Shown here: one piece after another, positions 7,330 to 62,433 of the stretch | Position numbering within the stretch: position 1 is the stretch's first letter | Layout: each line of letters starts with the position of its first letter | DNA from: an uncultured Lentisphaerota bacterium | Lineage (GTDB): Bacteria; Verrucomicrobiota; Kiritimatiellia; CAIQIC01 | Direction of reading: 5' to 3' | Assembly: GCA_903889245.1 (NCBI GenBank) | Contig: CAISWQ010000038.1 | Coordinates: forward strand, 68,763 to 132,762 | DNA: 64,000 bases | Notes under the pieces: generated by a model | What the model was told of the DNA's origin: nothing | The model's input: only the letters and a program-made list of their open reading frames with translations | The model's database searches: none | Program-made: the position numbers and the translations under genes

Positions 7330-7473
7330 TTTTCCAGGGATTGGAAAACACAACGCCGGTTTTTCCAGGGATGGGAAGATTTCGCGCCCAGCTTTTCCAA
7401 GCCTTGGAAACTCTCGCTGAATTTTTCCCGAGGCCTGGAAAAAGCCGCCGTGAATTTTCCGGGCCTTGGAAAA
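7330..7473. repeat. array of 5 palindromic units (TTTTCCARGNNTGGAAAA-like) at 30-32 bp period
   Basis: The units start at about 7330, 7362, 7393, 7423 and 7455. Copies 3 and 5 are near-perfect; copies 2 and 4 are degenerate. Confidence 0.9.
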
Positions 7474-14678: not shown

Positions 14679-14730
14679 TTTTCCAATGCTTGGAAAAAGC
14701 GCTGATGCCACTTTCCAATCCTTGGAAAAA
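14679..14730. repeat. palindrome doublet (2 units, 32 bp apart)
   Basis: TTTTCCAATGCTTGGAAAAA and CTTTCCAATCCTTGGAAAAA, 50-100 bp upstream of the GH78 start. The 57-bp unit including its spacer is about 85% identical to the unit inside sulfatase 17624-17676. Confidence 0.9.
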
Positions 14731-17586: not shown

Positions 17587-19026
17587 ATGAAAACATTGCC
17601 TGCCATTCTTACGGTGTTTTGCGTTTTTCCAATGCTTGGAAAAAGTGCCGACTCCACTTTCCAACCCTTGGAAAAACCGCCGCGCCCGAACATCGTCTAT
17701 ATCCTCGCCGATGATCTTGGCTTCGCCGACGTGGGTTTCCACGGGCCGGAGATCAAGACGCCGCACATCGACAAGCTCGCCGCCGCCGGCACGAAGCTGG
17801 AAGCGTTCTACGTCCTGCCGGTCTGCACGCCGACGCGCTCGGCGCTGATGACCGGCCGCTACCCGATCCGCTACGGCCGCCAGTACAACGTCATCCGCCC
17901 CGGCTCGCAGGTCGGGCTCGCGCTCGAAGAGCGCCTGCTGCCGCAGGCCCTGCGCGAGGCCGGCTACGCGACGGCGCTGTGCGGCAAGTGGCACCTTGGC
18001 GATTTCAAGGCGGAATATCTGCCGATGGCGCGCGGCTTCGAGCACCAGTTCGGCTTCTGCTCGCACGGCGAAAAATTCACGCACTTCCCGAAAGGCGACT
18101 GCGGCTTGATGCGCGACCAGAAGCCGATCACCGAAGAAGGCTACCTCGCGCACATGACCGCCAACGAGGCGATCCGCCAGATCGAACAGCGTGATGTGAA
18201 CAAGCCGCTCTTCCTCTACGTCGCGTTCAACGCGGTACACAATCCGCTGGAGTGTCCGCCAGAATATGCCAAACCCTATGCAGCGCTCGGCCCGACGCGC
18301 AGCCTCTACGCTGGCATGACCGCCGCGATGGATGAGGACATCGGGAAAATCCTCGAGGCTATCGGGCGCGCCGGCATGGCCAGCAACACGCTCATCATCT
18401 TCCACAGCGACAACGGCGGGCTGACCACCAAGGGCAAGATCGCCAGCAACGCGCCGCTGCGCGGCGGCAAGGGCTCGCTCTATGAGGGCGGCGTCCGTGC
18501 CTGCGCCTGCGCCACGTGGCCCGTCCATATCCCGGCCGGCGCGGCGCTCAAGGAGCCGCTGCACGTCGTGGACTGGTATCCCACGCTGCTCAAGCTCGCG
18601 GGCGCCGCGCTCGAGCAGAAGCAACCGCTCGATGGACGCGATATCTGGCCGGTGCTCACCCAGAACAAACCTTCGCCGCACGATGTGCTCCTGCTCAACA
18701 CCGTCGGCCGCACCGGCGCCGTGCGCATGGGCGACTGGAAGCTCGTCCGCAATGGCAAGTGGGACGACGACGAGGACAGCAGCGGCGCGAAGCCGACGCG
18801 CGAGGAGAAGCAGAAGCAGCGGCTGGCGCGGCGCGACGCGCCCGACACCTTCGAGCTGTTCAACCTCGCGCAGGACCTCGGCGAAAAAAATAATCTGGCC
18901 CAGCAGCAACCCGACAAGGTGAAGGAACTCACCGCGCGGCTGGACGCCTTCGCCAAGGAGGCGGTCCCGCCGGACCTGGGGCCGCGGCCCGCCGGCGCGA
19001 AGAAGGGCAAGACTTCCGAAAAATGA
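17587..19026 (+). CDS. sulfatase (arylsulfatase-like, formylglycine-dependent)
   Basis: IVYILADDLGFADVGFHG, the CTPTRSALMTGRYP C-x-P-x-R motif, and GKWHLG. Confidence 0.9.
   Translation: MKTLPAILTVFCVFPMLGKSADSTFQPLEKPPRPNIVYILADDLGFADVGFHGPEIKTPHIDKLAAAGTKLEAFYVLPVCTPTRSALMTGRYPIRYGRQYNVIRPGSQVGLALEERLLPQALREAGYATALCGKWHLGDFKAEYLPMARGFEHQFGFCSHGEKFTHFPKGDCGLMRDQKPITEEGYLAHMTANEAIRQIEQRDVNKPLFLYVAFNAVHNPLECPPEYAKPYAALGPTRSLYAGMTAAMDEDIGKILEAIGRAGMASNTLIIFHSDNGGLTTKGKIASNAPLRGGKGSLYEGGVRACACATWPVHIPAGAALKEPLHVVDWYPTLLKLAGAALEQKQPLDGRDIWPVLTQNKPSPHDVLLLNTVGRTGAVRMGDWKLVRNGKWDDDEDSSGAKPTREEKQKQRLARRDAPDTFELFNLAQDLGEKNNLAQQQPDKVKELTARLDAFAKEAVPPDLGPRPAGAKKGKTSEK
17624..17676. repeat. palindrome doublet embedded in the sulfatase 5' coding region (translated FPMLGKS....FQPLEK)
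   Basis: TTTTTCCAATGCTTGGAAAAA and CTTTCCAACCCTTGGAAAAA, 32 bp apart, lying between the signal peptide and the mature sulfatase domain. Confidence 0.9.
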
Positions 19027-19036
19027 AAGGCACACC

Positions 19037-20512
19037 ATGAATTCCCGTCGTGATTTTCTGAAACTCGCCGGCCTCGGCGCGGTCGGCGCCGCGCTTTTTC
19101 CAAGGGTTGGAAAAAGTGCGGCCCCGGTTTTCCAGGGCTTGGAAAAAGGCAAGCGCCCGAGCGTGTTGTTCCTCATCGTGGACGACATGACGACGACGCT
19201 CGGCTGCTACGGCGACCGTGACGCGCGTACGCCGCACATGGATGCGCTCGCCGCGCGCGGCGTCCGCTTCGACCGCGCCTACACGCAATTCTCGCTCTGC
19301 AATCCCTCGCGCTGCTCGTTCCTCACCGGCTGCTACCCGGAGCGCACGAAGGTGTTCGATCTCGTCACGAGTTTGCGCGTGGCGCTGCCGGACGAGGTGA
19401 CGCTGCCGCAGCACTTCAAGAACGCCGGCTACACCGCCGGCCGCATCGGCAAGGTCTTCCACGTGCCCGATCCGAAGACCAAGCCCGATGTCACGCTGGG
19501 GGTGGCACTGCACAAGGATCAGGCGATCCTCGACGAGGCCAAGCTCGCCGAGCGCAGCGAGGGCGACCTTTCCGATCCGCCGCACAAGTCGGGGCGGGAA
19601 GGCAATCAATACAACCGTTGCTATGCGCCGTCACCGCATCCCGACAAGGATTTCACCGACTACCAGATCGCCGAGGAGGCGCTCGCGACGCTGGAGCAGT
19701 TCAAGGACAAGCCGTTCTTCCTCGCGGTCGGTTTCATCCGTCCGCACACGCCCTACGTGGCGCCGCGCCGGTTCTTCGACGCCATTGATCCAACGAAGAT
19801 CGCCATGCCCGCCTTCTATCAGTCCGGCGGCGAGGATCGCGCGAAAATTCCGAACCCCGCGCTGCGGCCGAACAACAATGTCTTCAGGTTCGCCGCGCCG
19901 TCGCCCAAGGAAGCGCGCGAGGCGCGTCGCGCCTATCACGCTTCGACCGCGTGGGTGGATTCCCAGGTCGGCCGCGTGCTCGCCAAGCTCAAGGAGCTGA
20001 AACTCGACGAGAACACCTACGTGCTGCTCACCGGCGACCACGGCTACCAGCTTGGCGAGCACGGCCTGTGGGCGAAGCAGACGCTGTTCGAGGAGGGCAC
20101 GCACGTGCCGCTGCTCGTCGCCGGGCCCGGCATCAAGCCCGGCACCTGTACGGGCCTCGTCGAGCAGGTGGATATTTTCCCGACGCTCGCCGCGCTCGCG
20201 GGGCTAGACATCCCGAAGAGCGTGCAAGGCATGTCGTTGAAGGAGCAGATCGCTGACCCAACCAAGGCGGGCAAGCCGGCGGTCTTCAGCACGATGGTCT
20301 CGACGCACACCAAGCTGATGGGACGCAGCGTGCGCGACGAACGCTTCCGTTACATCGAGTGGGATGAGGGCCGCGCCGGCCGCCAGCTCTATGACCACGA
20401 GGGCGATCCTCACGAGTTGACCAACCTGGCCGATCTGCCGCAACATGCCGCGCGTGTCGGGCAGATGCACGCCCTGCTGGCGCAGCACCTTGAAAAAGTA
20501 AGGAGCAAGTGA
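19037..20512 (+). CDS. sulfatase (iduronate-2-sulfatase-like), Tat-secreted
   Basis: Tat motif SRRDFLKLAGLGA. VLFLIVDD and CNPSRCSFLTGCYP (C-x-P-x-R). Confidence 0.9.
   Translation: MNSRRDFLKLAGLGAVGAALFPRVGKSAAPVFQGLEKGKRPSVLFLIVDDMTTTLGCYGDRDARTPHMDALAARGVRFDRAYTQFSLCNPSRCSFLTGCYPERTKVFDLVTSLRVALPDEVTLPQHFKNAGYTAGRIGKVFHVPDPKTKPDVTLGVALHKDQAILDEAKLAERSEGDLSDPPHKSGREGNQYNRCYAPSPHPDKDFTDYQIAEEALATLEQFKDKPFFLAVGFIRPHTPYVAPRRFFDAIDPTKIAMPAFYQSGGEDRAKIPNPALRPNNNVFRFAAPSPKEAREARRAYHASTAWVDSQVGRVLAKLKELKLDENTYVLLTGDHGYQLGEHGLWAKQTLFEEGTHVPLLVAGPGIKPGTCTGLVEQVDIFPTLAALAGLDIPKSVQGMSLKEQIADPTKAGKPAVFSTMVSTHTKLMGRSVRDERFRYIEWDEGRAGRQLYDHEGDPHELTNLADLPQHAARVGQMHALLAQHLEKVRSK
19095..19147. repeat. palindrome doublet embedded in coding (translated FPRVGKS....FQGLEK)
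   Basis: TTTTTCCAAGGGTTGGAAAAA and GTTTTCCAGGGCTTGGAAAAA, 32 bp apart, immediately after the Tat signal. Confidence 0.9.
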
Positions 20513-26292: not shown

Positions 26293-28565
26293 AACTGCAC
26301 GCGGCCATCGCCATCGCGTCGCTGCTCGCGCTCAGCGGTGCATCTGCGGATTTCTGCGTGCAAGACTTCGGTGCAAAAGGCGATGGCTTCACCGATGACG
26401 GCCCGGCGGTTCAAAGAACAGTTGCTGCCGCCGTGTCAGCGCGCAAGCCATCGCGGATCGTTTTCGCGCCGGGGAAAACGTACCGGCTGCTTACTCCTCG
26501 GTCGGTCAAAATGCACGACGCTAGACTGCTTGAGCTTCAGAACGTGAACGACCTCACCATTGATGGCGGCGGTAGCCTTTTTCTCCTCCATCCAGATGTG
26601 CAATTTCTACAGGCATCAAATTGTCAGCGGCTCGTTGTCTCGAATTTGGGAATTGATTTCTCACCGCTGCCGTTTGTGCCCGGCGTGATCACTGCGGTGG
26701 ACAAGTCCACGCACGCGGTTGATGTCGAGATACTGCCGGGTTTTGATTTGCCCGCCGCGGACGGCCGGAAGACGCAGCGACATCCTCCGTTCTTCGGCTG
26801 GTTGCATCCGTCGGAAATAAATTCGCCATCAGCCCGCTACCACTATTACGTAGAGAAGATCACCGAAACCGGCAGCCCGCTCCAGCGAAGGGTTCGGTTG
26901 TTTGCCCAAGAAGAGTCGTTCGGAAAATTCGAGGGTGCCGGCATCGCGGTGGGCACAAAAATATCTGTTCCGATTCCCGGTGCGGCGCATGCGGAACGGG
27001 GACTTGTGGGCATCACCGATTGCGCCGAAGTCACCCTCGCGAATTGGTCGGTGTGGGCGGCACCCTATTTCACCTTCTCGCTGGCCAGAAACAGCGGCAC
27101 CATCCTTGTGACAAATGTGACGCTCGCGCCGAAGCCGGGCACCGGGCGGATGATGTCGTCGGGTCGCGACGGCTTTCACTGCAAAGGGAATCGCGGCCAG
27201 ATGATCTTCGATGGTTGCACGGTGTGCGGACTCGGCGACGACAGTTTCAATATCTCGTCCATGACCGCGGGACTTCACCGTCAGGAATCCGCAAGCACCA
27301 TCGTCGCCCTTCGGCGATTCTGGCCGTCAGCGGGATATCCCGATTTCTCACCGGGCGACCTGCTCTCGTTCTTCGACCCGGCTGGGAAGAGTATCATCTT
27401 CTCTGCGCGCGCTACCGCTGTGGAGTTATTCGAGGAAAAGTCGCTGAAGCTCGTGCGGCTATCGTTCACGAATATGTTGCCTGCGCTGCCGGCCAATTGC
27501 CTGATCTACAACATGGCCATTGCAGCCCCCGGCACGATCATCCGCAATTCGCACATCACGGGAAGCTGCCGGATGCGCGCCCCGCTGCTCATCGAACATT
27601 CAATGTTCACCGGTTTCAACTGGTACTACGGCGACGACATCGAAGGGCCGTTCCCCCGGCGTGTGATGATCCGCCAGTCGCATTTTGTGAATGGCGACAC
27701 GCAGAACAATCGCGGTGATACGCTCCTCTTCGCTTCACCCCGGTTTTCCGCCACGACCAAGGCGACGGAATACGATGCCGATGACATCATCCTTGAAAAC
27801 AACATCTTCGACGGCGCGGTTGTTTTCGATCACTGCCGGAATCTCGCCGTGATCGGAAACCAGTTCAACTACACCAATCGGTTCATCGCGACCGGGCTCG
27901 AAAACGCGCTGTTTCGCGACAATGCCTTCGGCGGACGCGAAATGGCCGTTCTGCCAAACTCGAAGGCACACTCTGCGCAGCTTTCGGAAAAGAAGGTCAT
28001 GGTGACCGGCTCAACACGTAACGCGGCGACGCAGTCCTTGATGAAGCCCTTCACCTTTTTCATGGGGCGCTTGAGCGGCGGAGAGCCCAGCCGCCACATT
28101 TCCGCCGTGGGCAACGGCGCTTCCGGGAAGTACGTCGGCGCGGTTTCCATGTTTGGGAAAACGGTTGAGAGCTATGAACTGATTCCGCCGGGCCATGCAT
28201 CAACGGGTGCTGATGTTGCGATTGAGGAAGACATCGCCCCGCGCTTCTCCCGCCTCACGTTCCTTGCCGCGCCAGGTGATGACGCTGCTCGTTTCGCTGT
28301 CTATGCCGTGGATTCGACAAACACCGCGCGTCGCGAGATCGCCTCCGGCGCGCTTCCCGCCGGCCAGTGGACCGAAATCGCCGTTGATCTTTCATCGGCC
28401 GCACCCGGCCGCGATGGCTGCCGGCGGATCAACATTTCGTTACCCACCGCATCGGGCAAAACATCGCCCGTTTTCATCGGCGGTATCACCGTCATTGAAG
28501 ACGGCGCGACGGCGCCGCGGCGTGATCCCGCAGCATTGGTCAAGGAGCCTGTGAAACCAATATGA
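26289..28565 (+). CDS. right-handed parallel beta-helix (pectin-lyase-fold / Pectate_lyase_3-like) secreted protein
   Basis: Signal peptide. The N-terminal VQDFGAKGDGFTDDGPAVQ motif is typical of this fold. Confidence 0.6.
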   Translation: MKLHAAIAIASLLALSGASADFCVQDFGAKGDGFTDDGPAVQRTVAAAVSARKPSRIVFAPGKTYRLLTPRSVKMHDARLLELQNVNDLTIDGGGSLFLLHPDVQFLQASNCQRLVVSNLGIDFSPLPFVPGVITAVDKSTHAVDVEILPGFDLPAADGRKTQRHPPFFGWLHPSEINSPSARYHYYVEKITETGSPLQRRVRLFAQEESFGKFEGAGIAVGTKISVPIPGAAHAERGLVGITDCAEVTLANWSVWAAPYFTFSLARNSGTILVTNVTLAPKPGTGRMMSSGRDGFHCKGNRGQMIFDGCTVCGLGDDSFNISSMTAGLHRQESASTIVALRRFWPSAGYPDFSPGDLLSFFDPAGKSIIFSARATAVELFEEKSLKLVRLSFTNMLPALPANCLIYNMAIAAPGTIIRNSHITGSCRMRAPLLIEHSMFTGFNWYYGDDIEGPFPRRVMIRQSHFVNGDTQNNRGDTLLFASPRFSATTKATEYDADDIILENNIFDGAVVFDHCRNLAVIGNQFNYTNRFIATGLENALFRDNAFGGREMAVLPNSKAHSAQLSEKKVMVTGSTRNAATQSLMKPFTFFMGRLSGGEPSRHISAVGNGASGKYVGAVSMFGKTVESYELIPPGHASTGADVAIEEDIAPRFSRLTFLAAPGDDAARFAVYAVDSTNTARREIASGALPAGQWTEIAVDLSSAAPGRDGCRRINISLPTASGKTSPVFIGGITVIEDGATAPRRDPAALVKEPVKPI

Positions 28566-29929
28566 CATCCGACAACCAACATTTCTTGCTCACGCGGCCC
28601 CGTGCCGTCTTGTCACTGGTGGTAATGCTTGCATTCACTGGCAACATTGCCGGGAGAGCTGAACCCGCGCCGCCGTTCATCTCCGCGGTGCTCACCGACT
28701 ACGGCGCGGATGCGCGCGGCGAGCGCGATTCGTCCGAGGCCTTCGCCCGCGTGCTGACCGCCGCCGGGACCAACCGGCACATTCGCATCAGCATCCCTCC
28801 GGGCCGCTACCGCCTCGCCAGTCGCGTGCTGCTCACCGCCGCGGGCAACAGCAGCAATTACGGTCTGCACATCCAGGGCGCGGGCGAGAATGTCACCGAG
28901 CTGGTGGTGGATAACGCCGAGGGTGGCCTCGCGTTCGTCGGCAAGCATCTCACGCGCATGAGCGTGATCGTCTCCGATCTCTCGCTCGTCGCGGCGCGCA
29001 ACGGCGCGGGCACGGCGCTGGCGTTCGATACCGCCAACGCCGGCGTGCAGAACGACCGCCAGTTCACCGCACGCGACCTCACCATCCGCGGCGAGAAATT
29101 CGACCGCGGCCACTTCAACACCGCCGTCCATGTCCGCAACGCGTGGTTCACGCTGCTGCACAACATCAAGGTCACGCAACAATATCAGCCGGCGATCCGC
29201 GACCAGGCGTTCAACACCGAATACAATTTCCTGCTGGAGGATTGCTACAGCCCCAGCCTCACCGACTGCCGCGCGCTCGGCGGTCGTTACGGCCTCGTCC
29301 ATCGCGCCGTGAACATGAAACCGGATGCGCCCGAGGACGGCATCATCCGCGGCTGCTATTTCGTCGGGCAGGCCGAAGGCGTTGTCATCGACATGAAGAA
29401 GGGCGCGGGCGAATGGCCGGAGCCGGGGCTGCACATGGACAACTGCCACGTCGCCTATCGCGATCAAGGCCTCAACATCCGGGGGGTGCAGCAGGCGAAC
29501 ATCAGCCACTGCCTGTTCTATTGCCTCGACCGCACCGGTACGCCGTGGCATGTGCCCGATGTGATGCCCGTGCCGGGCGGCACGAAAGAGAAACGCCGCG
29601 ACTACGCGCCGTGCGACATCAACTTCGAGTTCGGCGCCAACATCGTCGTGGATGGCAACATCTTCACCGAGCCGGCGAATCCCAATCGTGTCGCCGTGCG
29701 CATTGGCCCGCGCTCCGGCCACATTTTGATTTCCGGCAATCAATTCAACGTGAGCGGCACCGCCATCAAAAACGAATCGCGCGAGCCGAGCTATGCCTCC
29801 GGCAACACCTTTGGCGGCAAACCCGACTGGTCCGCCGGCCTCACGCCCTATGCCGACGCGCCGCACACCTTGGCCACGCGCGATTTCCCGCCGCCGCCCC
29901 GCGCGCCATCAACCGGAGGCCGGCCGTGA
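28562..29929 (+). CDS. right-handed beta-helix (pectin-lyase-fold) secreted protein
   Basis: Signal peptide. Repetitive beta-helix-like segments with many Gly/Asn/Asp turns. The first ATG overlaps the previous stop. Confidence 0.55.
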   Translation: MTSDNQHFLLTRPRAVLSLVVMLAFTGNIAGRAEPAPPFISAVLTDYGADARGERDSSEAFARVLTAAGTNRHIRISIPPGRYRLASRVLLTAAGNSSNYGLHIQGAGENVTELVVDNAEGGLAFVGKHLTRMSVIVSDLSLVAARNGAGTALAFDTANAGVQNDRQFTARDLTIRGEKFDRGHFNTAVHVRNAWFTLLHNIKVTQQYQPAIRDQAFNTEYNFLLEDCYSPSLTDCRALGGRYGLVHRAVNMKPDAPEDGIIRGCYFVGQAEGVVIDMKKGAGEWPEPGLHMDNCHVAYRDQGLNIRGVQQANISHCLFYCLDRTGTPWHVPDVMPVPGGTKEKRRDYAPCDINFEFGANIVVDGNIFTEPANPNRVAVRIGPRSGHILISGNQFNVSGTAIKNESREPSYASGNTFGGKPDWSAGLTPYADAPHTLATRDFPPPPRAPSTGGRP

Positions 29930-29995
29930 TTTACCACCTTGTACCGTTGCGCTGGGTCGGTGACCCGGCCCGCAGTAAGCGAAAGCAAATCTGTT

Positions 29996-30022
29996 GTAGG
30001 CCGCGTGACCTCACGCGGCGTC
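29996..30022. repeat. REP-like element GTAGGCCGCGTGACCTCACGCGGCGTC (9-bp palindromic stem)
   Basis: GCCGCGTGA-CC-TCACGCGGC is a perfect inverted repeat with a 5' GTAG head. A second copy lies at 43222-43248. Confidence 0.7.
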
Positions 30023-30045
30023 TGACGCGACTGGGGGTGGCGGCG

Positions 30046-31443
30046 TCAATGTTTGGCGCCCTAAACGCCGCGGATTTCCAAGCCTTGGAAAAATCCGCGG
30101 AAAAAGTTCCAAGCCTTGGAAAAAATGAGCCGGAAATTTCCAAGGCCTGGAAAAACGGCGGAAATAATTTCCAATCCTTGGAAAACGTCGCCGGTGTGCA
30201 GGCCGTGCTTGCGCACATCCAGCAGGGTTTTCCGCAATCCATCAAGGTGGACACGAAGGGCGACGCCGATGTCGTCGGCCTGCCGCAGCCCTATACGGCG
30301 CCGTGCATCAAGGAGGGTTTCCAGCAGCAGTTTTACTGGGATACCTATTTCATCAACCAAGGGCTGCTGCGCATCGGCATGGCGGAGCAGGCGCGGCACA
30401 ACGTCAACAATCTACTGCTGCTGACCGACCAGTTCGGCATCGTGCCCTCGGCCAACCGGCGCTCGATGGCGAACCGGTCGCAGACGCCGTTTCTCTCGCA
30501 GATGGTGCGCGACTCCTACGAGCACCAGCCCGACGCCGCATGGTTGAAGGGCGCCGTTGCGGTGCTGAAGAAGGATTACCAGTTCTGGATGACGAAACGG
30601 CTCGCGCCGTGCGGGCTGAACCGCAGCGGCAACGACGCGACGGAGCAGTACCTGATGGCCTTTTATTATTACCTCGCGAAGGAGCGCTTCAAGGGGCTCG
30701 CGCTGGCGACGAAGGCGGAGCAACTCGCGTTCAGCAGCCAGGCGTTGAGCGAGGCGGAGACGTGGGACTTCACGCCGCGCTACGACCGCCGCGCCGAGGA
30801 ATTCTGTCCGCTCGACCTCAACAGCAATCTCTATATCTACGAGATGAACTTCGCGTGGTTCAGCAAGATTCTCGGCGCTGGCGAGGAAACGGCGTGGCTG
30901 GCGAAAGCGGAACAGCGCAAGGCGTTGATGCAGGAGTTGCTCTGGAACGAGAAGCTCGGCTGCTATGGCGACTATGACTGGAAGAACAGGAAGCAGGGCG
31001 ACCTCGTCAGTTGCGCCACGCTCTATCCGCTGGTCGCCGGTTTCGCCACGCCGCAGCAGGCGGAGCGGGTCGTCGCGAAGATGCGCGCGGTGCTCGAATG
31101 CGAGCACGGACTCGCGACGTGCGAGCAGCGCAAACATCCGTTCTCCTATCAGTGGGACTTCCCCAACGCGTGGCCGCCGCTACAACTGCTCGCGATCCAG
31201 GGGCTGGACCGCTACGGCTTCAAGGCCGATGCCCAGCGCATCGCCCGCAAGTACGTGGACACCGTCGTGCGGAATTTTGTGAAGACCGGCGACTTGTGGG
31301 AGAAGTACAACGCGGTCACGGGAACGATTGAGGTGAAGGACGAATACCAGATGCCGCGCATGATGGGCTGGACCGCCGGCGTGTTTGTCTGCGCGGCCGA
31401 CTATCTGCACCTGCGAAACAAAACCGGAGAACACAAACCATGA
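30046..31443 (+). CDS. trehalase-like glycoside hydrolase (GH37); start codon uncertain
   Basis: QQQFYWDTYFINQGLL matches trehalase signature 1. QWDFPNAWPPLQ matches signature 2 (QWD-x-PN-x-W-x-P). DLNSNLYIYE is also present. The first in-frame ATG at 30046 would place the palindrome array in coding; the alternative start is GTG near 30196. The N-terminal region is short compared with typical trehalases. Confidence 0.6.
   Translation, partial: SMFGALNAADFQALEKSAEKVPSLGKNEPEISKAWKNGGNNFQSLENVAGVQAVLAHIQQGFPQSIKVDTKGDADVVGLPQPYTAPCIKEGFQQQFYWDTYFINQGLLRIGMAEQARHNVNNLLLLTDQFGIVPSANRRSMANRSQTPFLSQMVRDSYEHQPDAAWLKGAVAVLKKDYQFWMTKRLAPCGLNRSGNDATEQYLMAFYYYLAKERFKGLALATKAEQLAFSSQALSEAETWDFTPRYDRRAEEFCPLDLNSNLYIYEMNFAWFSKILGAGEETAWLAKAEQRKALMQELLWNEKLGCYGDYDWKNRKQGDLVSCATLYPLVAGFATPQQAERVVAKMRAVLECEHGLATCEQRKHPFSYQWDFPNAWPPLQLLAIQGLDRYGFKADAQRIARKYVDTVVRNFVKTGDLWEKYNAVTGTIEVKDEYQMPRMMGWTAGVFVCAADYLHLRNKTGEHKP
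30074..30186. repeat. array of 4 palindromic units at 31 bp period
   Basis: ATTTCCAAGCCTTGGAAAAA, AGTTCCAAGCCTTGGAAAAAA, AATTTCCAAGGCCTGGAAAAA and AATTTCCAATCCTTGGAAAAC. Consecutive copies are read in different frames. Confidence 0.9.
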
Positions 31444-33940: not shown

Positions 33941-35515
33941 ATGCCAAGCAGTAGGCAGCGGCGGGCGGAGGTTTTGGTGGTAGTCGGTCTGGCGGCGACT
34001 GCGGTCCTTGCGCAAGCCCCTTCGTGGTGGACCAGCCGCGCCGTCCTGCTCACCGGTCCCGGCGTCGTGACCAATGACTTCTCGCTGGTCAATCAGGGGC
34101 AGGTGAAGTGGATGGCCACGCAGGCCAAGGCGGAGTTCGACGAGAAGCTGCAACTGATCGGCGGCGCGGGTAGCAACGTCAACGCGCTCGTCGGTTCGTT
34201 TGTCAATGCCAACAATTACCGCCCGGTCAACGCCGGCATGCTCAAGAACACCGTCGCTCCCTTCTATGAACGGCTGCTGGCGCTGGGCCTGACCAACTGC
34301 TATCCGGCAGGCGCGGGTCGGCCCTATCCATGGAGCAATTCAACCAATCCACCGCGCGATTTCTCGATTGTCAATATTGGTCAGACGAAATACGTGTACA
34401 GCTTCAACACCGAGGTGGACAGCGACGGCGATGGCATTCCGGACATGTGGGAGCGCAGCCTTGGCTCCGATCCCTACCTGCACGACGCGCAGGCGGTGAA
34501 CACCAACGCATGGGCGCAGGGGCTGACGAACCTGGAGCTTTATCAGGGGATGAGCAGCCTCACGATCCCCAACGCCTGGGCCGTCTATACCAACACCAGC
34601 CAAGTCGCGGTGGTCGCGGACATCCGCTCGCGCAACCGCTACCTCACGGTGAAGGCGGCGGAATTCTTCCTCGACACCACCAACGGCGTCACCTTTGGCA
34701 CTGGTACGGCGATGAGCGCGATGGATGGCGCCTTCAACTCGACCAACGAAATGGCGCAGGCGATTTTCACGCCCACCTTCCCCGCCGGCGAGCGCCACGA
34801 AATTTTCATCCACGCCCAAGACAACGCCAACCACTGGTGTCCCTTCGTCAAAGTCATCGTCAACCCCAACATCAACGACATCCTCGACCGGATTCAGGCG
34901 AACTATTCAGCCATCCACGATTTGCAATTCAAGGTGGTGTTCACCGAGACCAAGGATGGCGTTATGACCCGCAGCGATATTGTCGCCGTCAAGATGAAAG
35001 GGCCATATAAGACTCGCAGTGAATATTCAACCGGGCTTTGCGTCATTCAAAATGAGAACACAGAATGGTGGTTTAAGCCATCGCTCGGTGGCCACGCCAT
35101 GCAGACGGCCTTGAACGATGACTTCGATCCCAACGCCAATCGCAATGCCGACATTTTTTGGGACATACCTCTTTGGCGGAGTCGGATGACCAGCAGTATC
35201 GCGGGTGCCCCCACGCCAGGGATATTTGACGTGGCCATGTCGCCGACAGGGGGATCCATTTGGCAACCACAAACCATGCGCGTGGATTTCTCGCGTGGAT
35301 TCGTCACGCAGTTGAACATAAATGACACAGATATTTCTGCCTCGATAAACTACTCGAACCCTCTGGAAGTTGCGCCTGGTGTCTGGTTGTTCACCAGCCA
35401 CCATCATGTCCTCCAGTTTAGCGGTGGTTTCCAGATGATTACCGATTTTATCCTGACCGATATCAAGGTGAATCAAGGTTTGAATGACTCGCTGTTCACC
35501 ATCCCGACGGAGTGA
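33941..35515 (+). CDS. secreted hypothetical protein with a DxDxDG calcium-binding-like motif and a LolA-like C-terminal region
   Basis: A strong RBS AGGAGG precedes the ATG. Signal peptide. DSDGDGIPDMWE is present. GC content is lower than in the upstream genes. Confidence 0.5.
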   Translation: MPSSRQRRAEVLVVVGLAATAVLAQAPSWWTSRAVLLTGPGVVTNDFSLVNQGQVKWMATQAKAEFDEKLQLIGGAGSNVNALVGSFVNANNYRPVNAGMLKNTVAPFYERLLALGLTNCYPAGAGRPYPWSNSTNPPRDFSIVNIGQTKYVYSFNTEVDSDGDGIPDMWERSLGSDPYLHDAQAVNTNAWAQGLTNLELYQGMSSLTIPNAWAVYTNTSQVAVVADIRSRNRYLTVKAAEFFLDTTNGVTFGTGTAMSAMDGAFNSTNEMAQAIFTPTFPAGERHEIFIHAQDNANHWCPFVKVIVNPNINDILDRIQANYSAIHDLQFKVVFTETKDGVMTRSDIVAVKMKGPYKTRSEYSTGLCVIQNENTEWWFKPSLGGHAMQTALNDDFDPNANRNADIFWDIPLWRSRMTSSIAGAPTPGIFDVAMSPTGGSIWQPQTMRVDFSRGFVTQLNINDTDISASINYSNPLEVAPGVWLFTSHHHVLQFSGGFQMITDFILTDIKVNQGLNDSLFTIPTE

Positions 35516-35576
35516 GAATGAAAAACAACGCAAAACAGATTCTTCCTTCGGTGAACCACGCAAAGGCATCTTTGAT

Positions 35577-35629
35577 CTTTTCCAAGCCCTGGGAAAGGCG
35601 GCCTTGTCTTTTTCCAAGGTTTGGAAGCT
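35577..35629. repeat. palindrome doublet (degenerate, 32 bp apart)
   Basis: CTTTTCCAAGCCCTGGGAAAG and TTTTTCCAAGGTTTGGAAGCT, 25-80 bp upstream of the TolB-like start. Confidence 0.8.
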
Positions 35630-35655
35630 TGGTGGCTGCGCTATGCTCGCGGCAC

Positions 35656-36738
35656 ATGGCTGTGGCATTCCTTCTGATAGCCGTGCAGTCCTTCTGCGGG
35701 AACGTATCGGCGCAGGACTTCAACAACCTCGAATACCTCTGCTGCGATTGGGGGCCAGCAATGACACTGCCGACCAAACCCAACGAGGCGGCGCAATTCA
35801 ACGATACCGAGGATGAAGTCTATTTTCTCAAGCAGGCGACTTCCTTCACCCGCAGGAAACGCTTGGGCAAGGATTTGTTCAGCGGGCGGGATTATGAGGA
35901 CATCGGCAAGGGTTTGAGCATTTACCTCTGCAAGATGAGGGCCGATGGTAGTGCCAAGACGGAGATCAAGGAACTCTGGAAGAATCCCGCGTACCCGATT
36001 GACACACAGGGACAATCCACCTGGATGGATGTGAACCGGAAGACGCACAAAATAGTATTTTCCATCACCTTCGCAGGTAGTGACATTACCGGACTTTGGA
36101 CCGTGGATTTGGATGGGCGTGGGTTGAAAAGGGTCATTACCCCAGACCGTAATGCTAAGTATCTCCAAGCCATCAACCATCCGAGTTGGACGCCCGATGG
36201 CGAGTGGATCTTTTATGAAGAGGAACTGCGCGGGATGAATCCCAACCGATTCAATATCGGGAAATGCGATGTAAGGGGATCAGGCTGTTCAAGAATATTT
36301 GAGGCGACAGAAAAGATTCAATACCAACATCCCTGTGTCTCACCTGATGGCAAGAAACTTGCCTTCCTACGGTTGCCTTATGGCTATCCGGGAGCTCCGT
36401 TTGTGTGGATTGCAAATTTAGGTGGAACTACCGCAGCACCAGTTGGTGGTAAAGAGACAATCCAGAATTGCGGTTCCGCCCCAGCTTGGAGTCCGGATGG
36501 GAAGCAGATTTTTTTGAGAGGGAGGGTGCTCGACGCACAGTGTGGGGATATACTACGTTCTGGGACTCCACTGCGTGATGGGAAGGCTCATTCAGAAGGG
36601 TGGGTTCATTGGGGTCGCTTTGGGTTTATTGGATTCAATCTCTCCGGCATTCTATTTACGGACAAGGAACTTAAGAATTCAAAATTGATTGGCGTCCCTC
36701 GTTTGGTTGAAAAAGGGGGCACCACATGCGCCTGGTGA
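35656..36738 (+). CDS. TolB-like / WD40-like (PD40) beta-propeller periplasmic protein
   Basis: Signal peptide MAVAFLLIAVQSFCGNVSA. Repeated PD40-like segments (PSWTPDGEWIFY, CVSPDGKKLAFL, PAWSPDGKQIFL). GC content is lower. Confidence 0.7.
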   Translation: MAVAFLLIAVQSFCGNVSAQDFNNLEYLCCDWGPAMTLPTKPNEAAQFNDTEDEVYFLKQATSFTRRKRLGKDLFSGRDYEDIGKGLSIYLCKMRADGSAKTEIKELWKNPAYPIDTQGQSTWMDVNRKTHKIVFSITFAGSDITGLWTVDLDGRGLKRVITPDRNAKYLQAINHPSWTPDGEWIFYEEELRGMNPNRFNIGKCDVRGSGCSRIFEATEKIQYQHPCVSPDGKKLAFLRLPYGYPGAPFVWIANLGGTTAAPVGGKETIQNCGSAPAWSPDGKQIFLRGRVLDAQCGDILRSGTPLRDGKAHSEGWVHWGRFGFIGFNLSGILFTDKELKNSKLIGVPRLVEKGGTTCAW

Positions 36739-39700
36739 TTCATCAAGTACTGCGTTTATTCGTAGTTGCTATCCTGCCTGGGTTAGGGTTTGCGCAACAA
36801 TCCAGAGTGTTGGCATGGAAACCAACGATAGATGATCCCAGCGAGACAATGCTGTATCGCCCAGAGCCAATTCTTTTCGTTCATGGAATAAATGACAATG
36901 ACTCCGGATGGGCTGCTGCCATTGAAGCACTTCAACCTTCGTTTTCCGGCTACTACATATCGCGTGATATTGACGACTTTTCGCGTGAACAGACGAATGG
37001 ACTCAATGCTGTGCAGCAACCTTATCTCCACACCTTTAACTATGGCAACTACGTGAGGGCAAATCTGCCGGACAACGCGCAGTCCTTTGACCACATCGAA
37101 TGGAACGCGTGGGAAGCAGACATGAAAAGCCGTGCGTTCACCAATGCCTTTCTGCGATCGGTCTCCACCAACATCACTGTTCGCAAGTGGCAATGGAATA
37201 ACGATGAAAATAAATGGGACTGGGTGTCTGAAACTGTAACGCTTCCGCCAGATCCAGAACATCTTCATCCGCCGATTAACGACAATCGCAAAACGCTACA
37301 GCAGAGAATCGATGACCTGCGTCAGGCATATCGCATCTTCACAAACGTCCCGAACAATGTCCTCGTCGCCCACTCGATGGGCGGCTTGCTCTCGCACTAT
37401 TATCTCTGCAAAAAGGAAGAAGCCGCCCAAGACTCCGGCGTGCGGCGGCTGGTGACGTTGGCGACCCCGCATTGCGGATCGCCGGTGGCCAATGACCAGT
37501 TTAAGAGCTTGGTCATAAATCCAGTGGATCGCATTGCCCACGGCGCAAACATGACGATTTGGTACAAATTTGCCCGGACGATCACGTTTGGCAGGAAGGA
37601 TCCCGTGGGTTACACACGCTATTCGGCAGGCGGCGCCTTGGAGGACTTGACGGTTTCGATTTCCGGTGGCGGATATCTCGCCTATGCCAACGATCTGCAA
37701 ACCTTTTTTGAGACTCACAGCGTGCCGACCCTTGAATATGTCTTCAATGGTTACACGATGCCGACCTTCACGCTGTACAAGACCTACAGATTATTTGGTG
37801 GAAATGCGGCGGCGTGGAGCGATGTAAAGATTGGTGATGGCGTCGTCTCCTTGAAAAGCGCCGCGGGCAAAAGCTCTAATGACGCTTCTTCCATCTGGAC
37901 AGGGCAAGATCCGGTTGTCTTTCAACCTTGGACTGGTCAGGACCACAGCGATGCTAACAAACACATCCCGTCACTTTTCGCCTCCCTCTTCGGCGTTCCC
38001 AATCAATGGCCTGGCCCGCCGGCACGACCGCCGGTATACGAGAATGTGATCCCGTCCTATGCGAGAACCTATGGCGAGAACCAAAGCTTTGGCAAATATC
38101 TCCCATGGTGGTGGGGATGGTGGAATGAGAACGAAGCTTACTGGGCCTCTGATGAACCGGGAATTGGCGATGTGACGCTGTTGTGCGAGCGGCCACAAGG
38201 CAACGCCCTTGTTATCTCGGCGCTTAATACATGGGGCCTGACGAACGACAATGTCACCGGCTTTAATTTGCCGAAAAAGCTGCACACGGCTCATTCAAAT
38301 CTCGTCGCTCATCAAATCCTCGGCGACCCACAGGCGCAACTCCGTGTGCTGGCGCTGGCAGGAGCGAAGAATCACGCACGCATCCCTTTTGGCATGGACG
38401 GAACCAATTTCTGGGCAGTAGATGGCAATGAGTATCTGCCCGCCAGTTTGCAAGTGAGGTATGCCGCCAGTACCGCCCCGATAGACACAATCACCAATCC
38501 CTTTCAGTCCGGTTGCATTGCATCAACTGTGACGTTGCTCGACACCAACGATGCGCCACAATTTCAGTATGGCTTGTTTGATCGCGCCTTCAATTCCACC
38601 GCCTATCGCCCGCAAGCGCCCAACACCGTTTACTTCGCTATGGAAGCCACCAATCTGGCCGGTTTCTTCACACCCCAGGCCGAGCGCGGGTTCGATGTAC
38701 CGGTGAATTCGGCGACGGTGGTGAATCTGCTCTGCGGCATCAACGAGCGCGAGGCGGCGGCGGGTGTCGGCCAAACGCACTGGATGACCTGGGTTACTGA
38801 ATGGATTGATTTATCCCCCACGAATACTACGATCACGCTGAATTTCTTCCCCAAAGATGACCCGAATACCTGGGGCTTTTGGTTGGAAGATGCATTCACC
38901 GACACACTTTACGAAGACTGGACCGCCTACGATAACGTCAGCAAAAAGTTCACCATTCCGCCACCGGATGCGCAGCGCTGCCTGAAGGTCACATATGAGG
39001 CCTATCTCGGCGGCCTGGCCAGTTTCACCAACCTCTACGAGGGCAGCACCAATTTTTGCGTCGTCCCGCCCCTGACCAACGCCTCCGCGCTGGCGGGTAT
39101 CCCGGCAACACCCGAATTCGTCCAGCAGATGAAAGACGCGTTGTATCGTCTGTTCCCGCGATATGTTGATCACACCTTGGCTGCGGAAGGTAATTTCAAC
39201 AATTGGCTGGCCACCCACCCAACAGCCGCGGACTTGCCCATGCTGGCGGCCACGAATCTTGCGGGTGTGACTCCCAACTACTGTTGGGACTGCACGACCA
39301 ACATGCTCTCCGGTCAAGACTTTGTTGAATTGCACACCGCGTCAACCAATTTGCAATGGATCCGCTTCAAGGGCGATTGGAACTCATTGGGGATGACCAA
39401 TACAGCGTTTGGGGTTGGATGGACGAATAGTTTCCAGGCGAATGCGTGGTGCGCTTCAAAAACGCTGGCGGAGTCAGATTTCCAAACCAATCGGTGGGAA
39501 GGTGGAGATCCCAACTGGATTGCCGCGCCACATGCGGGCAGCTATGGCGAGGTCGCTGATGGCGGCTGGGGTGGCCTCTGGAGTGTTTATTCTTCGCACC
39601 TCACGCGCTCCTATTGTTCCTTTGGCGGGAACAATCTCCCCTTGGCGACGAACGTTTCGGCGCAGTTGTATTTCCCGGTGTTTACGTATGCCTCGCCGTG

Positions 39701-39962
39701 GGGCCTCACCAACGCTGTTTTTCATGATAATGGCGACAACGTGCTGCTCGCCACTAATGCCGCCGGAGTCATGCAAAGGTCTTTTACGTATGATGGGAGT
39801 GGCACCAACTGGACCAGCATAGGCAATGCCTCGCTGCCTGTCCCCACCTGGTGCGACGAACCGCCCGGTTCGCCCACCTACGGTACGACAGCCAAAGGTT
39901 ATCAAGCCGGAAGCCGCGCCATCTTGCTCCTCAAGGTCAGTGAGAGTTTCAACTTCAAATGA
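36726..39962 (+). CDS. large secreted protein with an N-terminal alpha/beta-hydrolase (lipase/PGAP1-like) domain
   Basis: Signal peptide. ILFVHGINDNDSGW and the nucleophile elbow VAHSMGGLLSHYY (G-H-S-M-G) are present. A long C-terminal region follows with no recognised motifs. This has the lowest GC in the window. Confidence 0.65.
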   Translation: MRLVIHQVLRLFVVAILPGLGFAQQSRVLAWKPTIDDPSETMLYRPEPILFVHGINDNDSGWAAAIEALQPSFSGYYISRDIDDFSREQTNGLNAVQQPYLHTFNYGNYVRANLPDNAQSFDHIEWNAWEADMKSRAFTNAFLRSVSTNITVRKWQWNNDENKWDWVSETVTLPPDPEHLHPPINDNRKTLQQRIDDLRQAYRIFTNVPNNVLVAHSMGGLLSHYYLCKKEEAAQDSGVRRLVTLATPHCGSPVANDQFKSLVINPVDRIAHGANMTIWYKFARTITFGRKDPVGYTRYSAGGALEDLTVSISGGGYLAYANDLQTFFETHSVPTLEYVFNGYTMPTFTLYKTYRLFGGNAAAWSDVKIGDGVVSLKSAAGKSSNDASSIWTGQDPVVFQPWTGQDHSDANKHIPSLFASLFGVPNQWPGPPARPPVYENVIPSYARTYGENQSFGKYLPWWWGWWNENEAYWASDEPGIGDVTLLCERPQGNALVISALNTWGLTNDNVTGFNLPKKLHTAHSNLVAHQILGDPQAQLRVLALAGAKNHARIPFGMDGTNFWAVDGNEYLPASLQVRYAASTAPIDTITNPFQSGCIASTVTLLDTNDAPQFQYGLFDRAFNSTAYRPQAPNTVYFAMEATNLAGFFTPQAERGFDVPVNSATVVNLLCGINEREAAAGVGQTHWMTWVTEWIDLSPTNTTITLNFFPKDDPNTWGFWLEDAFTDTLYEDWTAYDNVSKKFTIPPPDAQRCLKVTYEAYLGGLASFTNLYEGSTNFCVVPPLTNASALAGIPATPEFVQQMKDALYRLFPRYVDHTLAAEGNFNNWLATHPTAADLPMLAATNLAGVTPNYCWDCTTNMLSGQDFVELHTASTNLQWIRFKGDWNSLGMTNTAFGVGWTNSFQANAWCASKTLAESDFQTNRWEGGDPNWIAAPHAGSYGEVADGGWGGLWSVYSSHLTRSYCSFGGNNLPLATNVSAQLYFPVFTYASPWGLTNAVFHDNGDNVLLATNAAGVMQRSFTYDGSGTNWTSIGNASLPVPTWCDEPPGSPTYGTTAKGYQAGSRAILLLKVSESFNFK

Positions 39963-43116: not shown

Positions 43117-43221
43117 AAAACCGATTTCGATGGCAGGCTTCGCCGGGATTCCCCGAAAATCATTTCCGCCGGGTCGGTGCCCCGGCCTACAGTCCGGACG
43201 CCGCTGTTCCGGTGGCGTGCT

Positions 43222-43248
43222 GTAGGCCGCGTGACCTTACGCGGCGTC
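43222..43248. repeat. REP-like element GTAGGCCGCGTGACCTTACGCGGCGTC (second copy)
   Basis: Identical to the element at 29996-30022 except for one C-to-T change that preserves pairing as a G-U wobble. A second small hairpin CCTCACGC-TCC-GCGTGAGG follows at about 43274-43292. Confidence 0.7.
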
Positions 43249-43317: not shown

Positions 43318-43454
43318 GTTTTCCAAGGCTTGGAAAATTTTCCGCGCGTTTTTCCAAGGCTTGGAAAAGTGGCGCCGGGTTGTTGCTGGCGGCGGGCCTG
43401 CTTTTTCCAATGCCTGGAAAAACGGCTGCCGCGACTTTCCAATCCTTGGAAAAC
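43318..43454. repeat. 4 palindromic units arranged as two doublets
   Basis: Units at about 43318, 43349, 43402 and 43435. The first two are noncoding; the last two are read as FPMPGKT....FQSLEN at the sulfatase N-terminus. Confidence 0.9.
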
Positions 43455-44858
43455 AAGACGCCGCCCAACGTGCTGTTCATCGCGATTGACGACCTGAACG
43501 ACTGGGTGGGTTGCCTCGGCGGTCACCCGCAAGCGCATACGCCCCACCTCGATGCGCTCGCGGCGCGCGGCACGCTGTTTGGCAACGCGCATTGCCAGTC
43601 GCCGCTGTGCAACCCATCGCGCACCAGCCTGCTGACGGGGCTGCGCCCCTCGGCGACGGGCATCTACGGCCTGCTGCCGGGCCTGCGCGATGTCGCCGCG
43701 ACGCGGGACTGCGTCACGCTGCCGCAGTACTTCGCGGCGCACGGCTATTTCACGGCCACTTTCGGCAAGGTGTATCACGATGGCTCGATTCCGCCGGCGC
43801 TGCGCACGAATGAGTGCAGTGTGTGGGGTAGCGCGCCGGGCATGCCGCTGCCGCCGAAAAAATTCGTGGCGACGCCTGACCCGATGCGGGTGATGGACTG
43901 GGGCGTCTTCCCCGCCGACGACCGCGAGCAGGCGGATTGGAAAATCGCCGACGCCACGATCGCGCAGCTCAAGGCGCGCCCGGCGGGCCGGCCGTTTTTC
44001 ATCGCGTGCGGGTTCCGGCTGCCGCATGTGCCGTGCTTCGCGTCGCAAAAGTGGTTCGACCTGCTGCCGCCGGAAAACGAGATCGTGCTGCCGCCGGTCA
44101 AGGAGCGCGAGCGCGAGGGCACGCCGGAGTTTGCGTGGTACCTGCACTGGAAGCTGCCGGAGCCGCGGCTCACGTGGCTGAAAAAAGCCGGCCAGTGGCG
44201 GCCGCTCGTCCGCGCCTACCTCGCCAGCACGGCGTTCATGGATAGCCAGCTCGGGCGCGTGCTGGCGGCGCTCCAGGCGGAGGGCGTCGCGGAGCGGACC
44301 ATCGTGGTGCTGTGGTCGGACAACGCGTGGCATCTGGGCGAGAAAGGGATCACCGGCAAGACGACGCTGTGGGAGCGGTCAACGCATGTGCCGCTGATCT
44401 TTGCGGGGCCGGGCGTGACGCGCGGCGCGAAGTGCGGACAGCCGGCGGAGTTGCTCGATATCTATCCCACGCTCCTCGAACTCTGCGGCCTGCCGGCGAA
44501 GGGCGGGCTGGCCGGGCACAGCCTGATGCCGCAGTTGCGTAACGCGGCCGCGCCGCGGCCGTGGCCCGCGCTGACGACGCACAATCCGGGGAATCACGGC
44601 GTGCGTTCCGAGCACTGGCGCTACATCCGGTACGCCGATGGCTCGGAGGAACTGTATGACCTGCGCGCCGACCCGCACGAGTGGAACAACCTCGCCAGGG
44701 AGCCGCGCTATGCCGACGTGGTCCGCGACCACGCGCGCTGGCTGCCCAGGGAAAATGCGCCGCTCGCGCCCGGCAGCGCCGCGCGGATTCTGGAGCAGAG
44801 GAACGGCGTCTGGTTTTGGGAAGGCCAGCCGATTGACCCGGCGCAAAAAGAGGAATGA
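43380..44858 (+). CDS. sulfatase (iduronate-2-sulfatase-like); start uncertain (TTG 43380 or ATG 43410)
   Basis: VLFIAIDD and CNPSRTSLLTGLRP (C-x-P-x-R). The reading frame is open far upstream, so the true start is ambiguous. A short hydrophobic segment LLLAAGLLF precedes the motif doublet. Confidence 0.8.
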   Translation: MLLAAGLLFPMPGKTAAATFQSLENKTPPNVLFIAIDDLNDWVGCLGGHPQAHTPHLDALAARGTLFGNAHCQSPLCNPSRTSLLTGLRPSATGIYGLLPGLRDVAATRDCVTLPQYFAAHGYFTATFGKVYHDGSIPPALRTNECSVWGSAPGMPLPPKKFVATPDPMRVMDWGVFPADDREQADWKIADATIAQLKARPAGRPFFIACGFRLPHVPCFASQKWFDLLPPENEIVLPPVKEREREGTPEFAWYLHWKLPEPRLTWLKKAGQWRPLVRAYLASTAFMDSQLGRVLAALQAEGVAERTIVVLWSDNAWHLGEKGITGKTTLWERSTHVPLIFAGPGVTRGAKCGQPAELLDIYPTLLELCGLPAKGGLAGHSLMPQLRNAAAPRPWPALTTHNPGNHGVRSEHWRYIRYADGSEELYDLRADPHEWNNLAREPRYADVVRDHARWLPRENAPLAPGSAARILEQRNGVWFWEGQPIDPAQKEE

Positions 44859-62315: not shown

Positions 62316-62433
62316 TTTTCCAAGGATTGGTCCCGACCTCGCAGCGCGTCGGGATTCCAAGCCTTGGGAAATCCCCGGCGCTTTTTTCCAAGCCTTGGAA
62401 AAAACGGCCGAAAATTTTCCAAGCCTTGGAAAG
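62316..62433. repeat. array of 4 palindromic units lying between convergent gene ends
   Basis: Units at about 62316 (degenerate), 62352, 62383 and 62414. The last two are near-perfect (TTTTTTCCAAGCCTTGGAAAAAA and ATTTTCCAAGCCTTGGAAAG). Confidence 0.9.

Follow-up and report, generated by a model that had tools for sequence, protein, structure and literature searches.

Two hairpins with REP architecture

The window analysed here, a stretch of 64,000 nucleotides of DNA, contains two almost identical short hairpins, each shortly ahead of TTCCAA-N3-TTGGAA palindromes. Their GTAG head and palindromic stem raise the question of whether they are REP elements of the type handled by RAYT transposases, and whether hairpins and palindromes travel together as one module.

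A first reading, made from the sequence alone, had placed near-identical 27-mers at 29996-30022 (site A) and 43222-43248 (site B). Both are present: GTAGGCCGCGTGACCT[C/T]ACGCGGCG starts at 29996 and at 43222 and has no further site in the window, and the two 27-mers are one base apart (C30012 versus T43238). When up to three mismatches are allowed, the 20-mer GCCGCGTGACCTYACGCGGC matches only sites A and B in the window, each of them on both strands because it is palindromic. The expectation by chance is 0.13 matches, and four matches were reached in none of 100 shuffles. The forward strand of the window has the heptamer GTAGGCC at 29996, at 43222 and nowhere else. When the window is searched with a profile derived from 162 foreign copies, it yields site A (E = 1.8e-8), site B (E = 1.4e-5) and no further match.

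At site A, the REP hairpin occupies positions 29996-30020 of the forward strand and consists of a GTAG head, an 8-bp stem (GCCGCGTG/CACGCGGC), the loop ACCT and a 3' G. The site B hairpin (43222-43246, forward strand) is built in the same way, except that the loop-closing C is replaced by T. Both are predicted to fold into a stem of 8 bp with a 4-nt loop (ACCT), as is the whole family described below. The palindrome proposed in the sequence-only reading is real, but its stem of 9 bp would leave a loop of 2 nt, and a stem of 8 bp is realistic. That reading had also interpreted the single difference as a G-U wobble. Pairing is indeed kept, since the change from C to T turns the loop-closing G-C into G-U/G-T, but it does not reflect covariation: the T occurs in only 1 of the 127 metagenome copies listed and is hence a rare mutation. 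With a stem-loop palindrome at both sites (8-bp stem, 4-nt loop) and an unpaired GTAG tag in both forward-strand copies, the window hairpins possess true REP architecture.

Each hairpin is half of an inverted pair

The alignment of sites A and B returned a second conserved block upstream, GGGTCGGTG[A/C]CCCGGCC[CG/TA]CAGT, and an inverted related hairpin, overlooked in the first reading, lies 22-31 nt upstream of each copy. The partner at site A spans positions 29951-29973 of the reverse strand (GCGGGCCGGGTCACCGACCCAGC) and shows a degenerate head, GCGG for GTAG, a stem of 7-8 bp and a 3-nt loop. Its type is also found as GTAGGCCGGGTCACCGACCCGGC in locus L014, and in L129, L157, L158, L172, L212, L220 and L237. 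The partner at site B (43168-43190, reverse strand; GTAGGCCGGGGCACCGACCCGGC) retains an intact GTAG head and has one stem mismatch. Each site is therefore a GTAG-inward ('tail-to-tail', TT) REP heterodimer, in the nomenclature of Di Nocera et al. 2013 (PMC3733652). The two hairpins of site A are predicted to fold separately, and the entire dimer of site B is predicted to form one long hairpin, with a minimum free energy of -62.1 kcal/mol and a z-score of -2.4.

The spacer of the site A dimer (29974-29995) is 22 nt long and shows no conservation with that of site B (43191-43221), which is 31 nt long and contains a small hairpin of its own. Because of this difference in spacers, the window dimers are not recent copies of one dimer, and with spacers unlike in both length and sequence they do not qualify as REPINs. 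Like heterodimers elsewhere, among the metagenome copies listed, have spacers of 16-36 nt with unrelated sequences.

These comparisons also bear on a local segmental duplication, in which sites A and B would be paralogous copies of one upstream region. In its favour, the window shows only two copies of the hairpin, sites A and B can be aligned over three short blocks, and the 5' ends of the window sulfatases are paralogous (families D3 and D6). However, the likeness is limited to the REP units and the palindromes, while spacers, flanks and neighbouring genes are unrelated, and other genomes contain the identical hairpin in hundreds of unrelated settings. As only the repeat units align, we reject the duplication, which we regard as very improbable.

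The hairpins belong to a large covarying family

Across genomes, the family follows the pattern (T)GTAG-GCC-N5-[A/C]CC[C/T]-N5'-GGC-G. We scanned species-representative genomes with GTAGGCCGCGTG-N5-ACGCGGC and retrieved at least 119 loci from at least 61 assemblies, which retain one and the same stem of 8 bp together with the GTAG tag. The assemblies listed are mostly labelled Verrucomicrobiota (Limisphaerales, Verrucomicrobiales and others); among the matches listed, a few are labelled Kiritimatiellota or Lentisphaerae and some carry other labels, all taken as given. Several genomes contain multiple loci, for example at least five in each of OZ260084.1 and JAKLFY01, and the DNA of the window itself holds four REP units (two dimers) in 64 kb.

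In metagenomes, we searched for the hairpin pattern without requiring the GTAG head and obtained at least 127 copies on at least 120 contigs. GTAG nevertheless precedes 102 of the 127 metagenome copies listed (80%), and most of the others carry one-base variants of it. An inverted partner ending in ...GGCCTAC lies within 80 nt upstream of 41 of these 127 copies, and head-to-head (HH) dimers are numerous among them. Outside the window, the copies are thus arranged singly, in inverted pairs of both polarities (TT and HH) or in tandem.

Perfect 8-bp hairpins with loops of 3 or 4 nt are formed at 172 of the 352 GTAGGCC sites of the fetched DNA that the search patterns had not forced, and they display many different stems. 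We measured covariation on 76 distinct sequences (74 fetched and 2 from the window), selected solely by their GTAGGCC head and GGCG tail. Paired cells amount to 96.7%, compared to 77.2% in shuffled alignments, and double-change cells to 96, compared to 32 (none of 500 shuffles as high). Compensatory changes are detectable at all five variable stem pairs, and the signal collapses in slid controls. The window hairpins belong to a large, GTAG-headed and stem-covarying repeat family. A literature search with the exact hairpin and palindrome sequences returned no relevant match.

Several copies have peculiar arrangements. On a complete Limisphaerales chromosome, three copies of the hairpin form a tandem array with 39-bp spacing (L074, 1514-1615), and a longer tandem repeat on a metagenome contig contains seven hairpins at intervals of about 127 or 255 bp (L187, 12576-13613). 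In L245, two head-to-head REP dimers lie in frame within a uvrA-like gene, one of them directly after the ABC signature ...LSGGEAQRIKLVTELAKT; in parallel to this, REP insertions are reported for uvrA genes of Opitutus terrae (PMC3733652).

In several groups of copies from different genomes the flanks are conserved beyond the REP, for example GCAAACTCGATTCCCACCGACAACCTCCAGATGCAC, ...TTTC.ATCGGAGTGTGAAATATGCGGG and CCTAGAAACGGCAGTTGGGCAGTCT-REP-GATGGCGATGCCGCATGCCCGGTGCGCC. One group is composed of L005, L049, L055, L057, L058, L066, L077, L078 and L080, another of L022, L034, L036, L040, L065, L081, L086, L103, L106 and L115, and a third of L012, L016, L028, L047, L070, L079, L083, L090 and L092. 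This conservation suggests larger composite repeats or conserved neighbouring elements.

RAYT-type genes in related genomes are bracketed by the hairpins

By using the E. coli TnpA-REP sequence as a query, after checking it against PDB 4ER8, we identified Y1-like open reading frames in three hairpin loci. The one in L100 encodes 193 aa with the HUH motif PDHLHLI and the tyrosine motif YVCLNPV. This RAYT-like protein, the one scored against NCBIfam NF047646 (REP_Tyr_transpos), reaches 79.4 bits for a cutoff of 80 (E = 2.4e-22; positions 11-145 of 146), and its match to Pfam PF01797 (Y1_Tnp) is weak (19.3 versus a cutoff of 23). It has more than 330 homologs, many of which were named 'REP element-mobilizing transposase RayT' by JGI. 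The HUH and catalytic-tyrosine motifs of the verrucomicrobial proteins align with those of 4ER8.

The L100 gene is bracketed by GTAGGCCGGCTGCCCTCAGCCGGC on the forward strand and GTAGGCCGCGTGCCCCCACGCGGC on the reverse strand. The GCCGCGTG/CACGCGGC stem of the window copies also flanks the RAYT genes of L100, where it forms the second hairpin, and of L120. In six further contexts (L120, L121, L124, L246, L247 and L248) a minus-strand REP invariably overlaps the 3' end of the RAYT gene, and in five of them (L120, L121, L246, L247 and L248) plus-strand GTAG-type hairpins lie just upstream of it. The upstream copies of L124 are degenerate and visible only as REP-encoded peptides in the called open reading frame. 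These six contexts are the classic REP-RAYT arrangement. Together with L100, seven independent genes of related genomes are therefore bracketed by REPs; in L096, upstream REPs are present and the 3' end of the gene runs off the contig.

We searched by tblastn, with E. coli TnpA-REP and a verrucomicrobial RAYT as queries, and found no RAYT gene in the 64-kb window and none in the 120 metagenome loci (588 kb) that carry the ACCT-loop subtype. The proposal that a GTAG-headed palindrome marks a REP/RAYT-type element is thus borne out at the level of the family, through covariation and through the RAYT-like genes that these hairpins bracket in relatives.

The RAYT genes have further peculiarities. 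In all six long contexts obtained from the homolog search, the RAYT gene directly follows a type I restriction hsdR gene (L120, 1203-4995; L247, 1224-5067; also L121, L124, L246 and L248). Those of L100 and L096, which come from hairpin loci, are located elsewhere and not after hsdR. In L120 and L247, the last approximately 40 codons of hsdR are duplicated immediately after the RAYT gene (...DDFDYAPFSxRGGLGKAHQLFGEQLPKLLDELNEVLAA). It looks as if a RAYT unit had been inserted into the 3' end of hsdR, bringing or leaving a replacement end.

Moreover, in most RAYT open reading frames a REP doublet lies in frame, between the HUH and tyrosine motifs, and encodes the peptides AASGDAAYN and VGRVPSHG (L120, 4486-4528; L121, 4315-4360; L124, 4454-4570; L096, 4049-4087); that of L100 is without it. 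The REP in the 3' flank supplies the codons for the C-terminus, TPREGTRPTT.

Most likely reading and comparison with known REP systems

We are fairly confident that the window sites are inverted, GTAG-inward REP pairs of a family found in many, mostly Verrucomicrobiota-labelled genomes. By analogy with E. coli TnpA-REP, a RAYT-type HUH/tyrosine transposase, encoded once per genome, would recognise the single-stranded hairpin together with its GTAG tag, and single-stranded GTAGGCCGCGTGMCCYCACGCGGCG is a candidate substrate. Such an enzyme could cut and join the hairpin and in this way seed copies, single or dimeric, mostly in tolerant intergenic places. Going by the general biology of REPs, the upstream mRNA probably carries the hairpins at its 3' end, where they may stabilise it or dampen read-through.

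GTAG REPs are known from eight phyla, among them that of the verrucomicrobium O. terrae (PMC3733652); they form HH and TT dimers, can lie within genes and are associated with RAYT genes. O. terrae is reported there as 'highly enriched in GTAG repeats'. GTAG REPs in Verrucomicrobia were therefore already described in 2013, and the window family adds to them. With the GTAG superfamily as presented there (including GTAG-17/18/19 of O. terrae), our family shares the unpaired 5' GTAG tag and a GC-rich stem of 8 bp, inside the reported range of 5-13 bp, with a loop of 3-4 nt. Common to both are also TT and HH dimers with variable TT spacers, a mostly intergenic location with frequent in-frame intragenic copies, and the association with a tyrosine transposase gene (PMC3733652). 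Judged by the published REP-encoded peptides, the families differ in sequence: these peptides are VGPALAAG, GTGVPPV and VAGV... in O. terrae and VGRV[PT]SRG here. Unlike in the O. terrae families, one stem sequence recurs here in at least 61 assemblies.

The REPIN-RAYT systems of Pseudomonas and Enterobacteria also rely on inverted REP doublets, and their RAYT gene, typically single-copy, is bracketed by REPs as it is here (PMC3116915, PMC2817692). The frame GTAGGCC...GGC is common to our family and to the REPs of Citrobacter, Klebsiella and Salmonella (PMC2817692). Unlike REPINs, the doublets described here are GTAG-inward heterodimers with non-conserved spacers, and replication as a fixed REPIN unit is therefore not evident. 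A further difference from REPIN-RAYT systems is that most of the RAYT genes that we fetched carry an in-frame REP doublet and that six of them come directly after hsdR.

The structure of E. coli TnpA-REP (RayT/YafM) bound to a REP hairpin is available as PDB 4ER8 (PMC3479197). The verrucomicrobial RAYT shares about 30% identity with this protein, in the region of the tyrosine motif only, and possesses the same HUH motif and catalytic-tyrosine motif Y-x-x-x-N-P-V. The type of substrate, a hairpin with GTAG, also matches, with recognition here inferred from genomic bracketing alone.

The window hairpins might belong to a single ancient REP-RAYT system spread across much of Verrucomicrobiota and possibly reaching Kiritimatiellota and Lentisphaerota, a scenario that we put forward only tentatively and hold to be rather doubtful. 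In its favour are the stem and tag common to at least 61 assemblies, the position directly behind hsdR of six of the eight RAYT genes fetched with context, the duplicated hsdR end at two of these loci and the REP doublet that the RAYT gene usually contains. Vertical inheritance would make this an association between REPs and RAYT of unusual depth and sequence stability, with a puzzling link to restriction-modification loci. The current picture of what REPs are is unchanged by these results. The family provides a large non-proteobacterial data set for REP/RAYT research, in which many assemblies share one hairpin sequence, in-frame copies within genes are frequent and a RAYT gene is tied to type I restriction loci.

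Genomic context of the dimers

Both dimers lie in gaps between co-directional genes, all on the forward strand. The site A dimer follows a pectate-lyase-like gene (28562-29929, forward strand), whose stop codon is 22 nt ahead of the dimer, and precedes a trehalase/GH63-like gene (30181-31443, forward strand; these coordinates cover the domain part only, and the true start is uncertain). The dimer of site B begins about 48-52 nt past the stop codon of an upstream gene with no assigned function and is followed by a sulfatase gene (43410-44858, forward strand), the first ATG of which lies within the third palindrome.

In the source annotation, the trehalase-like gene is given a GTG start (29926) that overlaps with the stop codon of the gene before it, and the resulting open reading frame (29926-31443) encodes 505 aa. 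With this start, the product would span the REP dimer and the four palindromes. We rejected this protein-coding reading of the site A REP region on codon-position GC, which is 0.84-0.88 at the third position (GC3) and 0.40-0.51 at the second (GC2) in the flanking genes, and 0.64-0.69 and 0.56-0.63, respectively, in the REP regions. The REP regions are without a coding signature, which indicates that the N-terminal extension of the trehalase is not coding. Both window dimers are non-coding and extragenic. For the window, the consequence is mainly one of annotation: the hairpins are non-coding repeats outside the trehalase-like open reading frame.

The location just past a stop codon (about 22-52 nt) and between co-directional genes is also what would be expected of a host regulatory hairpin that is kept for its own function and is now immobile, be it a terminator lacking the U-tract, a stabiliser of mRNA 3' ends or a site for protein binding. 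The stable GC-rich stems and the strong structural covariation fit such an element as well, and in E. coli an influence of REPs on the stability of mRNA and on termination is known. Scans for sigma-70 promoters and terminators, however, returned nothing at either hairpin, and instead of the U-tract of an intrinsic terminator the GC-rich stems are followed by GTCTGAC and GTCCGCT. No Rfam family matched anywhere in the window at gathering thresholds, and a search around both sites with E up to 1 retrieved nothing but hairpin look-alikes below the threshold, for example miRNA models from eukaryotes. A role in termination would, in addition, leave the conserved unpaired GTAG tag unexplained. Since copies lie within coding regions (the uvrA-like gene of L245 and the RAYT genes), form tandem arrays and bracket RAYT genes, a mobile repeat fits better than a dedicated terminator. 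We consider the regulatory alternative unlikely, although it is compatible with a secondary exaptation of REPs. The window hairpins should not be taken as a specific regulator of CAZyme and sulfatase genes.

Between positions 34001 and 40000 of the window (genes at 33941-39962), the G+C content is 0.51-0.56, compared to about 0.65 elsewhere, and this stretch may be foreign DNA.

Hairpins and palindromes are neighbours rather than a module

The window contains 30 TTCCAA-N3-TTGGAA palindromes in about 14 arrays, which take up almost all intergenic gaps of more than about 70 nt. At site A, four palindromes with 31-bp spacing occupy positions 30074-30187, and at site B two pairs occupy positions 43319-43455, the second of them in the 5' coding region of the sulfatase. 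In both cases the palindromes are neighbours of the REP and not part of it. The hairpins had been placed 55-70 bp upstream of four-unit arrays; the number of units is correct at both sites, and the measured gaps are 53 and 72 nt.

From this proximity arose the idea of a composite mobile module, in which the hairpin, or the dimer, and four TTCCAAG palindromes would move together. Besides the two window dimers, 53-72 nt ahead of 4-unit arrays, it can draw on six loci in which REPs lie 6-110 nt from palindromes (L014, L191, L212, L217, L220 and L237), and on five of six dimers, in which it is the GCGTG unit that lies closest to the palindromes. The module nonetheless breaks down in the window itself, where only 2 of the approximately 14 arrays have hairpins; the remaining 12 or so, among them arrays of five units (at 7332) and of three units (at 62355), are without them.

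Nor are the hairpins tied to the palindromes elsewhere. We checked whether they are always paired with arrays, and more than 95% of the copies outside the window have no palindrome nearby. The hairpin-bearing DNA holds 8 palindromes in 797 kb of genomes and 13 in 588 kb of metagenomes, and a palindrome lies within 250 bp of only 5 of the 127 metagenome copies listed.

Where the two do occur together, the coupling is loose: the gap can be as short as 6 nt or reach about 110 nt, the sequence within it is unrelated, the number of palindrome units ranges from 1 to 4, and in L026 hairpin and palindrome are 1.9 kb apart. In L014 the doublet is flipped and faces the opposite way relative to the palindromes and the gene. 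Since arrays are present in almost all intergenic gaps of the window, chance alone would bring the two together, and hairpins and arrays are adjacent because both occupy the same short intergenic spaces. Their adjacency reflects neither functional nor mobile coupling, and there is hardly any likelihood that they move as one module.

Pairs of palindromes, 31-32 bp apart, are also found inside the 5' coding region of sulfatase genes, at 14681-14727, 17627-17673, 19098-19144, 43405-43451 and 51802-51848, directly following Sec or twin-arginine signal peptides. Examples of the resulting N-termini are MNSRRDFLKLAGLGAVGAAL-FPRVGK-SAAPV-FQGLEK-GKRPSVLF and MMATSRRDFLKLAGLGALA-FPSLGK-TAPAG-FQPLEK-SRPNFLIILADD, where translation of one and the same palindrome in two frames yields FPxLGK and FQxLEK; it is stop-free in every frame. 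In the relatives L014 and L212, the palindrome pairs are located in the 5' UTR rather than in coding sequence. With their period of 31 bp and perfect symmetry of the DNA, the pairs look like an element acting at the DNA or RNA level that the sulfatase coding sequence tolerates.
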